Assembly: GCF_056746865.1 (NCBI RefSeq)
Contig: NZ_CM163382.1
Direction: 5' to 3' (one strand)
Length of the DNA stretch: 64,000 nt
The notes under the pieces are model-generated. The model made no database searches. It had not been told where the DNA came from and saw only the letters and a program-made list of their open reading frames with translations. Below are positions 3,525-18,302 of this stretch, in pieces. How positions within the stretch are numbered: position 1 is the stretch's first letter; each line of letters opens with the position of its first letter. The position numbers and the translations under genes are program-made.

Positions 3525-4943
3525 TCAGACAACTTCCTCACCGTAACGCATAGTGCTGGTACGGTTGCGCCCATCTTTCTTCGAGCGATACAGACACGTA
3601 TCGGCTTCGACCATCAATTTATTAAAATCATCGGTCAGCGTTCGGTACGATGCGCGACCACTACCGACGCCAATACTTACCGTGAGATAAAGCGTTTTTT
3701 GTTGCCAGGTGAACGGTTGCAGTTCAACGCCTTTACGGATTTTTTCCGCCATTAGCAGACCATCGACAGGATTCACCGACGGCACTGCAACAGCAAATTC
3801 TTCGCCGCCCATGCGCGCCACCAGCCCCTTATCACCGACAATCTTCTGAATATGCCGGGCAAACACGCTTAACACTTTATCGCCACATTCATGTCCATAG
3901 TTATCGTTAATGCTTTTGAAATAGTCAATATCAAGCAGCATGACCGTCAGATGTTGTGTCTGTTTCAGCGATGGACTTTTCAGCGCCTCATAAAGACCGG
4001 ACCGTGAGTAAACCTGAGTCAGAAAATCAAAGTCGGCTCGCAGCGCAACTTGCTTCATTAGCGAATTGATCGCTGCCACGCTAAAAGAAACCATAATTGG
4101 GCATATCGCCATCGTAGCAATACCGAGACGTGCGGAGAACATTTGCGGAATGGAGAACGGCGAACCGACCGAGATATCAATCACCGAATTTGCCACCAGT
4201 ACGATTTCCACCGCACCGGTGACAAAGGTCAACAGACATGTTACCTGCGGCGTATAGCGCACGGCACACCAGATTAATGCAGGCAGCGGGAACGCCAGAC
4301 TCCCCGCTCCGCCAATGACTACCGAGGCAATAACCGACACAATAAGCGCGATAGCGGGCATCATCTGTTCTGCTTTAAAGCGCGGCAGCACTCCCGGAAT
4401 AGCCAACGTCAGCATACAAGGCACGATCAACACGCCCGTTGAGAATTGCTCACTGAACCAGTCCGCAAGCAAAGGCCAGAAATCCAGACTATCAATACTG
4501 ACCGAACCAATCGCCCCGACAATAGCGCATAATAATGCGGCAATCAGACAGTAATTAAATAGCCGTAAGGCACTTACTGGCTCATACTTATTTTTCCCCA
4601 GACGCTTATCCCGCGCGACCAGAAAGGCGACGGTAACAATAAACATCATATTGGAGAAATTGATAGCCAGTGAAACCAGCCCCCATTCGGTGGTTATGGC
4701 ATCATAAACCAGCATCGCCACATAACTGATCGCATAGTAATGCAGTCGATTAAGCCAGACATAGCGGGCAAACACCCCCGCCATTACGCCATTCAGCGGC
4801 CAGAAAAGAGAAAGTTCGTGAACCAACCGTAACTCTGCACCAATAAAATAGAACAGCGTGGTTAGCGCAAAAATAGCGATGCTATTACGTAGCAGATGAC
4901 CTTCCTGGAACAAACGGAAAGTTGAAATGGGCTGTACATGCAT
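3525..4943 (-). CDS. dgcF: membrane-anchored diguanylate cyclase
   Basis: 472-aa ORF with N-terminal hydrophobic segments and a C-terminal GGDEF domain (motif RMGGEEFAV); corresponds to yneF. Confidence 0.88.
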   Translation of the reverse strand: MHVQPISTFRLFQEGHLLRNSIAIFALTTLFYFIGAELRLVHELSLFWPLNGVMAGVFARYVWLNRLHYYAISYVAMLVYDAITTEWGLVSLAINFSNMMFIVTVAFLVARDKRLGKNKYEPVSALRLFNYCLIAALLCAIVGAIGSVSIDSLDFWPLLADWFSEQFSTGVLIVPCMLTLAIPGVLPRFKAEQMMPAIALIVSVIASVVIGGAGSLAFPLPALIWCAVRYTPQVTCLLTFVTGAVEIVLVANSVIDISVGSPFSIPQMFSARLGIATMAICPIMVSFSVAAINSLMKQVALRADFDFLTQVYSRSGLYEALKSPSLKQTQHLTVMLLDIDYFKSINDNYGHECGDKVLSVFARHIQKIVGDKGLVARMGGEEFAVAVPSVNPVDGLLMAEKIRKGVELQPFTWQQKTLYLTVSIGVGSGRASYRTLTDDFNKLMVEADTCLYRSKKDGRNRTSTMRYGEEVV

Positions 4944-14447: not shown

Positions 14448-15635
14448 ATGAACTTATCCCTACGACGCTCTACCAGCGCCCTTCTTGCCTCGTCGTTGTT
14501 ATTAACCATCGGACGCGGCGCTACGCTGCCGTTTATGACCATTTACTTGAGTCGCCAGTACAGCCTGAGTGTCGATCTAATCGGTTATGCGATGACAATT
14601 GCGCTCACTATTGGCGTCGTTTTTAGCCTCGGTTTTGGTATCCTGGCGGATAAGTTCGACAAGAAACGCTATATGTTACTGGCAATTACCGCCTTCGCCT
14701 GCGGTTTTATTGCCATTCCTTTAGTGAATAACGTGACGCTGGTGGTGCTCTTTTTTGCCCTCATTAACTGCGCCTATTCCGTTTTTGCTACTGTGTTGAA
14801 AGCCTGGTTTGCCGACAATCTTTCGTCCACCAGCAAAACGAAAATCTTCTCAATCAACTACACCATGCTCAACATTGGCTGGACCATCGGTCCGCCGCTC
14901 GGCACGCTGTTGGTGATGCAGAGCATCAATCTGCCCTTTTGGCTGGCAGCTATCTGTTCCGCGTTTCCCATGCTTTTCATTCAAATTTGGGTAAAGCGCA
15001 GCGAGAAAATCATCGCCACGGAAACAGCCAGTGCCTGGTCGCCGAAAGTTTTATTACAAGATAAAGCACTGTTGTGGTTTACCTGCTCTGGCTTTCTGGC
15101 TTCTTTTGTTAGCGGCGCATTTGCTTCATGCATTTCACAATATGTGATGGTGATTGCTGATGGGGATTTTGCCGAAAAGGTGGTCGCGGTTGTTCTTCCA
15201 GTGAATGCTGCCATGGTAGTTACGTTGCAATATTCCGTGGGCCGGCGACTTAACCCGGCTAACATCCGCACGCTGATGACAGCAGGCACCCTCTGTTTCG
15301 TCATCGGTCTGGTCGGTTTTATTTTTTCCGGCAACAGCCTGCTATTGTGGGGTATGTCAGCTGCGGTATTTACTGTCGGTGAAATCATTTATGCGCCGGG
15401 CGAGTATATGTTGATTGACCATATTGCGCCGCCAGGAATGAAAGCCAGCTATTTTTCCGCTCAGTCTTTAGGCTGGCTTGGTGCGGCGATTAACCCATTA
15501 GTGAGTGGCATAGTGCTAACCAACCTGCCGCCTTCCTCGCTGTTTATCATCTTAGCGTTGGTGATCATTGCTGCGTGGGTGCTGATGTTAAAAGGAATTC
15601 GTGCAAGACCGTGGGGGCAGCCCGCGCTTTGTTGA
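14448..15635 (+). CDS. ydeE: MFS transporter
   Basis: 395-aa ORF with multiple TM segments; synteny. Confidence 0.88.
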   Translation: MNLSLRRSTSALLASSLLLTIGRGATLPFMTIYLSRQYSLSVDLIGYAMTIALTIGVVFSLGFGILADKFDKKRYMLLAITAFACGFIAIPLVNNVTLVVLFFALINCAYSVFATVLKAWFADNLSSTSKTKIFSINYTMLNIGWTIGPPLGTLLVMQSINLPFWLAAICSAFPMLFIQIWVKRSEKIIATETASAWSPKVLLQDKALLWFTCSGFLASFVSGAFASCISQYVMVIADGDFAEKVVAVVLPVNAAMVVTLQYSVGRRLNPANIRTLMTAGTLCFVIGLVGFIFSGNSLLLWGMSAAVFTVGEIIYAPGEYMLIDHIAPPGMKASYFSAQSLGWLGAAINPLVSGIVLTNLPPSSLFIILALVIIAAWVLMLKGIRARPWGQPALC

Positions 15636-15764
15636 TTTAAGTCGAACACAATAAAAATTTAATTCAGCCTTCGTTTAGGTTACCTCTGCTAATATCTTTC
15701 TCATTGAGATGAAAATTAAGGTAAGCGAGGAAACACACCACACCATAAACGGAGGCAAATAATG

Positions 15765-15769
15765 CTGGG
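15765..15769. repeat. IS2 target-site duplication, left copy (CTGGG)
   Basis: 5-bp direct repeat flanking the element. Confidence 0.85.
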
Positions 15770-15860
15770 TAGACTGGCCCCCTGAATCTCCAGACAACCA
15801 ATATCACTTAAATAAGTGATAGTCTTAATACTAGTTTTTAGACTAGTCATTGGAGAGCAG

Positions 15861-16226
15861 ATGATTGATGTCTTAGGACCGGAGAAACGCAGACGGCGTA
15901 CTACACAGGAAAAGATCGCTATTGTTCAGCAGAGTTTTGAACCGGGAATGACGGTCTCCCTTGTTGCCCGGCAACACGGTGTGGCAGCCAGCCAGTTATT
16001 TCTCTGGCGCAAGCAATACCAGGAGGGAAGTCTTACTGCTGTGGCCGCAGGAGAGCAGGTCGTTCCTGCCTCTGAACTTGCTGCTGCCATGAAGCAGATT
16101 AAAGAACTCCAGCGCCTGCTCGGCAAAAAAACGATGGAAAATGAACTCCTTAAAGAAGCCGTTGAATACGGGCGTGCAAAAAAGTGGATAGCGCACGCGC
16201 CCTTATTGCCCGGGGATGGGGAGTAA
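15861..16226 (+). CDS. insC: IS2 transposase OrfA (InsC)
   Basis: Translation [56 protein letters not shown]... with HTH; 121 aa from the internal ATG. Confidence 0.93.
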
Positions 16227-17089
16227 GCTTAGTCAGCCGTTGTCTCCGGGTGTCGCGTGCGCAGTTGCACGTCATTCTCAGACGAACCGATGACTGGAAA
16301 GATGGTCGCCGCAGCCGTCACTCAGATGATACGGATGTGCTTCTCCGTATACACCATGTTATCGGAGAGCTGCCCACGTATGGTTATCGTCGGGTATGGG
16401 CGCTGCTTCGCAGACAGGCCGAACTTGATGGTATGCCTGCGATCAATGCCAAACGTGTTTACCGGATCATGCGCCAGAATGCGCTGTTGCTTGAGCGAAA
16501 AACCGCTGTACCGCCATCGAAACGGGCACATACTGGCAAAGTGGCCGTGAAAGAAAGCAATCAACGATGGTGCTCTGACGGGTTCGAGTTCCGCTGTGAT
16601 AACGGAGAAAAACTGCGAGTCACGTTCGCGCTGGACTGCTGTGACCGTGAGGCACTGCACTGGGCAGTCACTACGGGCGGCTTCGACAGTGAAACAGTAC
16701 AGGACGTAATGCTGGGAGCGGTGGAACGCCGCTTCGGCAACGAGCTTCCGGCGTCTCCAGTAGAGTGGCTGACGGATAATGGTTCATGCTACCGGGCTAA
16801 TGAAACACGGCAGTTTGCCCGGATGTTGGGGCTTGAACCGAAGAACACGGCGGTGCGGAGTCCGGAGAGTAACGGCATAGCAGAGAGCTTCGTGAAAACG
16901 ATAAAGCGTGACTACATCAGTATCATGCCTAAACCAGACGGGTTAACGGCAGCAAAGAACCTTGCAGAGGCGTTCGAGCATTATAACGAATGGCATCCGC
17001 ATAGTGCACTGGGTTATCGCTCGCCACGGGAATATCTACGGCAGCGGGCCAGTAATGGGTTAAGTGATAACAGGTGTCTGGAAATATAG
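16184..17089 (+). CDS. insD: IS2 transposase OrfB (InsD), DDE catalytic domain; probably expressed as an OrfAB fusion by -1 frameshift
   Basis: 301-aa ORF in the -1 frame relative to insC, overlapping its 3' end; integrase-like core. Confidence 0.93.
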
Positions 17090-17100
17090 GGGCAAATCCA

Positions 17101-17105
17101 CTGGG
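17101..17105. repeat. IS2 target-site duplication, right copy (CTGGG)
   Basis: Identical to 15765-15769. Confidence 0.85.
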
Positions 17106-17220
17106 TAATATGAATGTTTTTATGGCCGTACTGGGAATAATTTTATTTTCTGGTTTTCTGGCCGCGTATTTCAGCCACAAATGGGATGACTAATGAACGG
17201 AGATAATCCCTCACCTAACC

Positions 17221-17259
17221 GGCCCCTTGTTACAGTTGTGTACAAGGGGCCTGATTTTT
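17221..17259 (+). terminator. intrinsic terminator of mgtS
   Basis: Perfect 10-bp stem GGCCCCTTGT / ACAAGGGGCC with an 11-nt loop, followed by TGATTTTT. Confidence 0.75.
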
Positions 17260-17267
17260 ATGACGGC

Positions 17268-17365
17268 AAAAAAAAACCGCCAGTAAACCGGCGGTGAATG
17301 CTTGCATGGATAGATTTGTGTTTTGCTTTTACGCTAACAGGCATTTTCCTGCACTGATAACGGAT
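17268..17365 (-). ncRNA. mgrR: putative PhoP-regulated sRNA MgrR (about 98 nt)
   Basis: Minus-strand hairpin CCGCCGG-UUUA-CUGGCGG followed by U9 (3' end near 17268); candidate -10 TACTGT (plus 17373-17378) puts the 5' end near 17365, giving about 98 nt; PhoP box upstream; location between mgtS and dgcZ. Boundaries are approximate. Confidence 0.5.
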
Positions 17366-17400
17366 CGTTGACACAGTAGCATCAGTTTTCTCAATGAATG

Positions 17401-17418
17401 TTAAACGGAGCTTAAACT
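17401..17418 (-). promoter_or_regulatory. PhoP box direct repeat (GTTTAA-N5-GTTTAA)
   Basis: The minus strand reads GAGTTTAAGCTCCGTTTAAC, matching the (T/G)GTTTA-N5-(T/G)GTTTA consensus; it overlaps the dgcZ stop codon and lies upstream of the putative mgrR. Confidence 0.55.
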
Positions 17419-18302
17419 CGGTTAATCACATTTTGTTCGTCAATAAACATACAGCGATTTCTTCCGGTTTGCTTACCCTCATACATTGCCCGGTCCGCTC
17501 TTCCAATGACCACATCCAGAGGTTCTTCAGGAAATGCGCGACTCACACCTGCAGTCACGGTAATGTTGATATGCCCTTCAGAATGTGTGATGGCATGGTT
17601 ATCGACTAACTGGCAAATTCTGATACCTGCACGACATGCTTCTTCATCATTAGCCGCTTTGACAATAATGATAAATTCTTCGCCACCGTAGCGATAAACC
17701 GTTTCGTAATCGCGCGTCCAACTGGCTAAGTAAGTTGCCAGGGTGCGTAATACTACATCGCCGATTAAATGCCCGTAGGTATCATTAACCAATTTAAATC
17801 GGTCAATATCCAACAACATTAAATAAAGATTCAGAGGCTCAGCGTTGCGTAACTGATGATCAAAGGATTCATCAAGAACCCGACGACCCGGCAATCCCGT
17901 CAAAACATCCATATTGCTACGGATCGTCAGCAAATAAATTTTGTAATCGGTTAATGCCGCAGTAAAAGAAAGCAACCCTTCCTGAAAGGCGTCGAAATGC
18001 GCGTCCTGCCAGTGATTTTCAACAATAGCCAACATTAATTCCCGACCACAGTTATGCATATGTTGATGGGCAGAATCCATTAGCCGAACGTAAGGTAATT
18101 CATCGTTATCGAGTGGTCCCAGATGATCAATCCACCGACCAAACTGGCACAGTCCATAAGAATGGTTATCCGTTATTTCTGGCTTACTGGCATCTCTCGC
18201 GACCACGCTGTGAAACATACTCACCAGCCACTGGTAGTGGGCATCGATAGCCTTATTGAGATTTAACAAGATGGCATCAATTTCCGTTGTCTTCTTGATC
18301 AT
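17412..18302 (-). CDS. dgcZ: zinc-sensing diguanylate cyclase DgcZ
   Basis: Start trimmed to MIKKTTEID (296 aa); C-terminal GGDEF (RYGGEEFII) and N-terminal zinc-binding-like region with His/Cys residues; corresponds to ydeH. Confidence 0.9.
   Translation of the reverse strand: MIKKTTEIDAILLNLNKAIDAHYQWLVSMFHSVVARDASKPEITDNHSYGLCQFGRWIDHLGPLDNDELPYVRLMDSAHQHMHNCGRELMLAIVENHWQDAHFDAFQEGLLSFTAALTDYKIYLLTIRSNMDVLTGLPGRRVLDESFDHQLRNAEPLNLYLMLLDIDRFKLVNDTYGHLIGDVVLRTLATYLASWTRDYETVYRYGGEEFIIIVKAANDEEACRAGIRICQLVDNHAITHSEGHINITVTAGVSRAFPEEPLDVVIGRADRAMYEGKQTGRNRCMFIDEQNVINRV

Follow-up and report, generated by a model that had tools for sequence, protein, structure and literature searches.

An IS2 insertion in codon 3 of mgtS that probably inactivates or severely weakens the gene in an Escherichia coli strain

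MgtS, a small membrane protein, stabilises MgtA, to which it binds, and also modulates PitA. According to the literature, transcription of its gene mgtS (also yneM) is directly activated by PhoP from the upstream region, and mgtS forms a single PhoQP-dependent operon with mgtT, which is the second gene. A further short coding sequence, referred to as 'CDS58', was reported by PIRT-seq upstream of mgtST (PMC12350097). In a survey from 2025, deletion of mgtS caused no growth phenotype.

Two described systems are close to the situation analyzed here. The insertion sequence IS2 carries an outward-facing −35 element in its right inverted repeat (IRR), which forms fusion promoters with −10 elements in the flanking DNA, as seen at ampC (Jaurin & Normark 1983) and upstream of acrEF/acrAB. 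The same −35 element is part of the promoter Pjunc in the IS2 minicircle junction (PMC3299598, PMC3219604). This junction promoter is reported to tolerate only a 17-bp spacer, spacers above 17 bp being described as non-functional (PMC3299598). At its left end, IS2 harbors PIRL, a weak extended −10 promoter that is repressed by OrfA (PMC3299598). The second system is mgrB of Klebsiella pneumoniae, likewise a very short PhoP-regulated gene for a single-helix membrane protein, which is disrupted by insertion sequences (PMC11429745). Its loss is selected by colistin and has recurred in many lineages.

The window analyzed here, i. e. the whole stretch of 64,000 nucleotides from contig NZ_CM163382.1 (assembly GCF_056746865.1), contains the E. 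coli region ydeE–mgtS–mgtT–mgrR–dgcZ in the same gene order as in K-12, with an IS2 copy inside mgtS. The insertion is composed of the following elements:

15770-17100, + strand: complete IS2 isoform of 1331 bp, 95.8% identical to K-12 IS2A with 0 indels
15770-15811 and 17060-17100: terminal repeats IRL and IRR of IS2, respectively
15861-16226, + strand: orfA of IS2, insC-type, 121 aa, with an HTH_Tnp_1 domain (Pfam); the protein is identical to that of K-12
16184-17089, + strand: orfB of IS2, 301 aa, with an rve integrase core, DDE (Pfam); stop codon TAG at 17087-17089
15765-15769, no strand: left copy of the target-site duplication CTGGG
17101-17105, no strand: right copy of the target-site duplication CTGGG

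The element has the features of IS2, a member of the IS3 family. Its ends form imperfect terminal inverted repeats of 42 and 41 bp (TAGACTGG.../...CAAATCCA), with TAGACTGGCCCCC... as the left terminus and ...GGGGCAAATCCA as the right one. In addition, orfA (HTH) and orfB (DDE/rve) overlap at an A6G frameshift window, the slippery site being located near 16178-16184, ahead of orfB (GCAAAAAAGTGG at about 16176-16187). Compared to K-12 IS2A, 56 substitutions have accumulated, which leave OrfA identical and result in 10 changes in OrfB. Over the last 26 bp of IRR, this copy does not differ from K-12 IS2, and the published work on IS2 promoters hence applies to this copy. The entire element shows 100% identity to an IS2 copy carried by a 233-kb plasmid in isolate 573 from chicken (NZ_CP102854.1), pointing to a source on a plasmid.

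On either side of IS2, the 5-bp sequence CTGGG is present as a perfect direct repeat, as is characteristic of its target duplications, and the insertion point lies after nucleotide 8 of mgtS, in codon 3. When IS2 and one copy of CTGGG are removed in silico, an uninterrupted mgtS colinear with K-12 is obtained. This restored empty site differs from K-12 by 53 mismatches over 3160 bp, none of which (0) falls inside mgtS, and over 300 bp it shows 100% identity to strains with an uninterrupted locus, for instance 118UI. Given the perfect duplication and the exact restoration of the empty site, IS2 reached codon 3 of mgtS by bona fide transposition. The junction is not an assembly artefact.

Both the element (IS2) and the gene (mgtS) are known, while their combination represents a previously unrecorded insertion site. 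The junction between the IS2 right end and mgtS (GGGGCAAATCCACTGGGTAATATG) does not occur in any of 5,426 complete RefSeq E. coli genomes, 5,407 of which have an uninterrupted mgtS locus. Nor is this junction present in the GTDB species representatives or in JGI metagenome contigs. To the right of IS2, several isolates of human, bovine and avian origin with an intact locus share 23.9 kb at 100% identity. On 13 public contigs, the annotation lists a 27-aa 'protein MgtS' identical to the mgtS remnant described below, and the IS2-truncated allele, or a similar one, may thus be carried by a small clade. A look-up of the neighboring MgtT returned intact loci only.

Other altered forms of mgtS were encountered along the way. 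Public protein collections contain further shortened or fused MgtS ORFs, for example MQPSFRLLGIILFSG... with a foreign N-terminus, and from these sequences mgtS appears to have been truncated independently more than once. In strain EC1 (NZ_CP058574.1), one of the exceptions among the complete genomes, an IS1 is found where mgtS, mgtT, mgrR, dgcZ, ydeI and the end of dcp belong (3589-4355 of the stretch compared). Judging from this arrangement, EC1 appears to have lost this whole region in an IS1-associated deletion, which would make it another natural mgtS-null strain.

The control region of mgtS is preserved on the left side of IS2, where two short reading frames are found:

15709-15762, + strand: leader ORF of 17 aa (MKIKVSEETHHTINGGK), from translation; upstream of IS2 and intact
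15762-15785, + strand: native mgtS start with its GGAGG Shine-Dalgarno (SD) sequence, now opening a 7-codon ORF (MLGRLAP, then stop) that ends inside the IS2 left end (IRL)

Only 8 nt of mgtS itself remain on this side (15762-15769). The mgtS promoter region, the leader and the strong SD sequence are intact and point in the same direction as the IS2 genes. They are now located 1.34 kb upstream of the mgtS remnant with IS2 in between, so that the native expression context of MgtS is lost. The TAA stop codon of the leader ORF overlaps the mgtS ATG (TAATG). Leader, mgtS and mgtT thereby constitute a chain of three small ORFs, each joined to the next by a TAATG overlap. The 17-codon leader ORF is probably 'CDS58'.

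As a consequence of the co-orientation, the PhoP-activated mgtS promoter now runs straight into the IS2 left end and the transposase genes (15640-15861), and low-Mg2+ stress could raise IS2 transposase transcription in this strain. RNA folding of read-through transcripts provided no indication of a fold-back that masks the ribosome-binding site of orfA. Its opening energy amounts to 6.4 kcal/mol in the read-through transcript versus 9.8 kcal/mol in the PIRL transcript, and masking was rejected on these values.

To the right of IS2, the following features are relevant:

17110-17193, + strand: mgtS remnant of 27 codons, from the native Met5 to the native stop (translation, Pfam)
17074-17193, + strand: 39-codon ORF that starts with a GTG inside IRR, in frame with mgtS (translation, Pfam)
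17193-17297, + strand: mgtT, 34 aa (Pfam MgtT), intact; its start overlaps the mgtS stop (TAATG)
17187-17400, − strand: Rfam STnc560 Hfq-binding sRNA locus (MgrR region), 281 bits, convergent with mgtS-mgtT

A first-pass annotation of this DNA had drawn attention to an in-frame ATG 9 nt downstream of the IS2 right end, and the sequence confirms it: the first 9 nt past the element, CTGGGTAAT (17101-17109), are followed by an ATG at 17110. This is the native Met5 codon of mgtS, and it is neither a chance feature nor a product of the insertion. The encoded 27-aa product, MNVFMAVLGIILFSGFLAAYFSHKWDD, equals MgtS residues 5-31 and is recognized by the Pfam family MgtS-like (PF22865) with 76.7 bits (cutoff 27) over profile positions 5-31 of 31. 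Compared to full-length MgtS of 31 aa, residues 1-4 are gone. The whole predicted helix, which the same annotation had described as retained, is indeed present, as the most hydrophobic 19-residue window of MgtS (residues 7-25) is entirely kept in the remnant. All full-length MgtS homologues retrieved preserve a 4-residue N-terminal extension of the form M-x-x-N/S. Among them, none has its natural start at position 5, which is occupied by Ile in some. This conservation hints that the extension may matter for MgtS. Data on N-terminal truncations of MgtS were not found in the accessible literature.

The longer frame of 39 codons scores 86.9 bits with the same Pfam family (cutoff 27). Its first codon at 17074 is GTG here and ATG in K-12 IS2, and the exact 39-aa IS2-MgtS protein is absent from a collection of 15 billion proteins. 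The start codon within IRR is located 27 nt from the IS2 end (for K-12 IS2A, position 1365 of the stretch compared), and the frame remains open to the tip of the element. IS2 insertions in one frame can therefore yield N-terminal fusions that start with MSGNIGANP-. In the present case, this frame coincides with that of mgtS and gives the 39 aa. The first-pass annotation had omitted this ORF along with mgtT and the intact upstream control region.

Since mgtT belongs to the mgtS operon, the insertion affects two genes and not one, and mgtT is probably silenced together with mgtS. The sRNA locus on the opposite strand is left untouched by IS2. The intrinsic terminator of the MgrR region at 17295-17276 (− strand) overlaps the mgtT 3' end in antisense. 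Loss of convergent mgtS-mgtT transcription could change this antisense overlap with MgrR.

With regard to translation, the absence of an obvious SD sequence ahead of ATG 17110, also pointed out previously, is borne out by pairing energies to the 16S 3' end, which were used as the measure of SD strength. The best properly placed pairing is CUGGGU with −3.7 kcal/mol and a 3-nt gap, versus −9.5 kcal/mol for the GGAGG of the native mgtS start. A UAGGGG in the IS2 tip pairs more strongly (−5.6 kcal/mol), but is situated 16 nt from ATG 17110 and thus too distant. The opening energy around ATG 17110 is 6.3 kcal/mol, which is no worse than that of the native start, and no special RNA structure was detected around the remnant start, where local folding is unremarkable (z = 0.61). 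The TAG stop codon of orfB (17087-17089) is positioned 20 nt upstream of ATG 17110.

Transcription of the remnant might conceivably originate from the IS2 right end, where one promoter element can be placed:

17079-17084, + strand: outward −35 hexamer TGGAAA of IS2, reconstructed from the minicircle-junction geometry and identical to K-12 IS2

For this placement, the junction was rebuilt from the ends of this very copy, with a 17-bp spacer that includes 1 junction bp and with TAGACT at the IRL tip as −10 element. The hexamer is hence derived from the published geometry and not taken from a figure.

The first-pass annotation had proposed that the right end acts as an outward or hybrid promoter from which the 27-codon ORF is transcribed constitutively, uncoupled from PhoP. 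Its premise that IS2 right ends can provide an outward −35 element for hybrid promoters is well backed by the literature on ampC, acrEF/acrAB and the minicircle junction. The parallels go further, as the same element is involved with the −35 element in its right end, TGGAAA is present, and the orientation found here is the sole one that directs the IRR −35 element toward the remnant. In the known fusion promoters, however, a −10 element is situated 17 bp from the −35 element, either in the flank or in IRL, whereas the corresponding position here (17102-17107) reads TGGGTA, which agrees with TATAAT at 1/6 positions. The −10 candidates at all spacers from 15 to 18 bp are equally poor (1/6), and the best relaxed combination, TGGAAA-19 bp-GGTAAT, depends on a spacer of 19 bp and is missing the important A at −11. 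A standard scan of 15600-17450 on both strands revealed no sigma-70-like promoter, with the proviso that consensus promoter scans are crude. A complete outward promoter within the last 60 bp of IS2 was considered as well and rejected, since the relaxed best matches reach at most 8/12 with non-optimal 15- or 19-bp spacers. Moreover, the IS2 −35 element ends 16 nt before the IS2 end, and by standard promoter geometry a promoter with a 17-bp spacer would initiate transcription at about 17113-17116, i. e. downstream and not upstream of ATG 17110. Such an IS2-type hybrid promoter therefore cannot encode the 27-codon ORF. Unlike in the known fusion promoters, the start codon is just 9 nt past the IS2 end and too near for a transcript of this kind. 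At most, a transcript from the IRR −35 element, with its start predicted at about 17113-17118, could serve as a near-leaderless mRNA for 23 aa that begin with Met9 (ATG 17122). Spacing, the quality of the −10 element and the geometry of the start site thus all led to the rejection of a hybrid promoter using the IRR −35 element, and PhoP-independent expression of the 27-aa MgtS from such a promoter is very unlikely.

Without a promoter at the right end, read-through remains the only plausible source of transcripts for the remnant. Transcripts might arise from the PhoP-activated mgtS promoter, from PIRL (extended −10 element TGAT at 15817-15820), or from both, with translation starting at ATG 17110 (27 aa) or at GTG 17074 (39-aa fusion) to give low but meaningful amounts of MgtS'/MgtT that are induced by low Mg2+. 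This scenario is consistent with the co-orientation of the mgtS promoter and the IS2 genes with the remnant. Furthermore, terminator prediction for the + strand yielded no intrinsic terminator from the ydeE terminator (15610-15626) through to the 3' end of mgtT. The sense strand of IS2 is rich in G, not in C, and has no C-rich/G-poor stretch typical of Rho loading sites. The opening energy around ATG 17110 and the retained hydrophobic core fit as well, and the proximity of the orfB stop makes some re-initiation conceivable. Yet, translation in the orfB frame needs a rare frameshift or the weak GTG start, which would render coupling inefficient, the SD pairing is poor, and the lost M-x-x-N/S motif is conserved in all full-length homologues. 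From established knowledge on insertion sequences, a poorly translated orfB of 0.9 kb may also invite Rho-dependent polarity. Meaningful expression by read-through, the main rival of the reading given below, is unlikely. If it occurred from the PhoP-activated mgtS promoter, which is intact and co-oriented upstream, expression of the remnant would remain linked to PhoP, and the earlier statement that it is uncoupled from PhoP control is accordingly doubtful. A more far-reaching version, in which the locus is rewired and not merely killed, combines PhoP-driven read-through with an Mg2+-stress-inducible IS2 transposase and with functional 27-aa or 39-aa MgtS plus MgtT from a tricistronic-like mRNA. 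This combination is quite improbable.

We consider an ordinary loss of function the likely reading: the IS2 insertion is probably recent and restricted to this strain, and it knocks mgtS out, or weakens it strongly, with a polar effect on mgtT. An intact IS2 has transposed into mgtS codon 3, so that the body of mgtS, along with mgtT, whose translation is linked to it, is now cut off from the PhoP-activated promoter, from the leader ORF and from the strong ribosome-binding site. On this reading, the mgtS allele would be null or severely weakened, and the 27-codon ORF would represent a plain leftover of mgtS from Met5 onward, for which IS2 is not expected to create a promoter. Residual MgtS' and MgtT could be made only via transcripts that cross the whole 1.3-kb IS2 from the PhoP-dependent mgtS promoter or PIRL. 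Translation of the remnant would presumably be poor and depend on the very weak SD sequence or on ribosomes that occasionally re-initiate after terminating at the orfB stop, 20 nt ahead of ATG 17110. The anatomy of the insertion, the lack of a hybrid or complete promoter, the weak SD sequence and the rarity of the allele are shown by the sequences, from which we infer the expression level of the remnant and the resulting phenotype.

Compared to the wild-type mgtS-mgtT operon of K-12, gene order and sequences are alike. The difference lies in the 1331-bp IS2 and the 5-bp duplication, which here split codons 1-3 from codons 3-31. The closest parallel in terms of outcome is the disruption of mgrB in K. 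pneumoniae, and loss of function is expected in the case of mgtS, too. In contrast to the loss of mgrB, the insertion into mgtS has no known selective benefit and is found in 0/5,426 complete genomes.

Beyond annotation, the relevance of this insertion is small. In this genome, mgtS should be regarded as IS2-disrupted and not as a gene for a 27-aa 'MgtS', and the annotation of mgtT should carry a note that polarity probably silences this gene. More generally, an IS2 hybrid promoter helps only genes that start at a distance of more than about 15 nt from the IS2 end, and it also needs flank positions +2 to +7 that resemble TATAAT. The strain is likely a natural mutant of mgtS, and perhaps of mgtT, which is relevant to work on Mg2+ homeostasis and PhoPQ. 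In addition, this strain could offer a natural test of the dispensability of the four N-terminal residues of MgtS.
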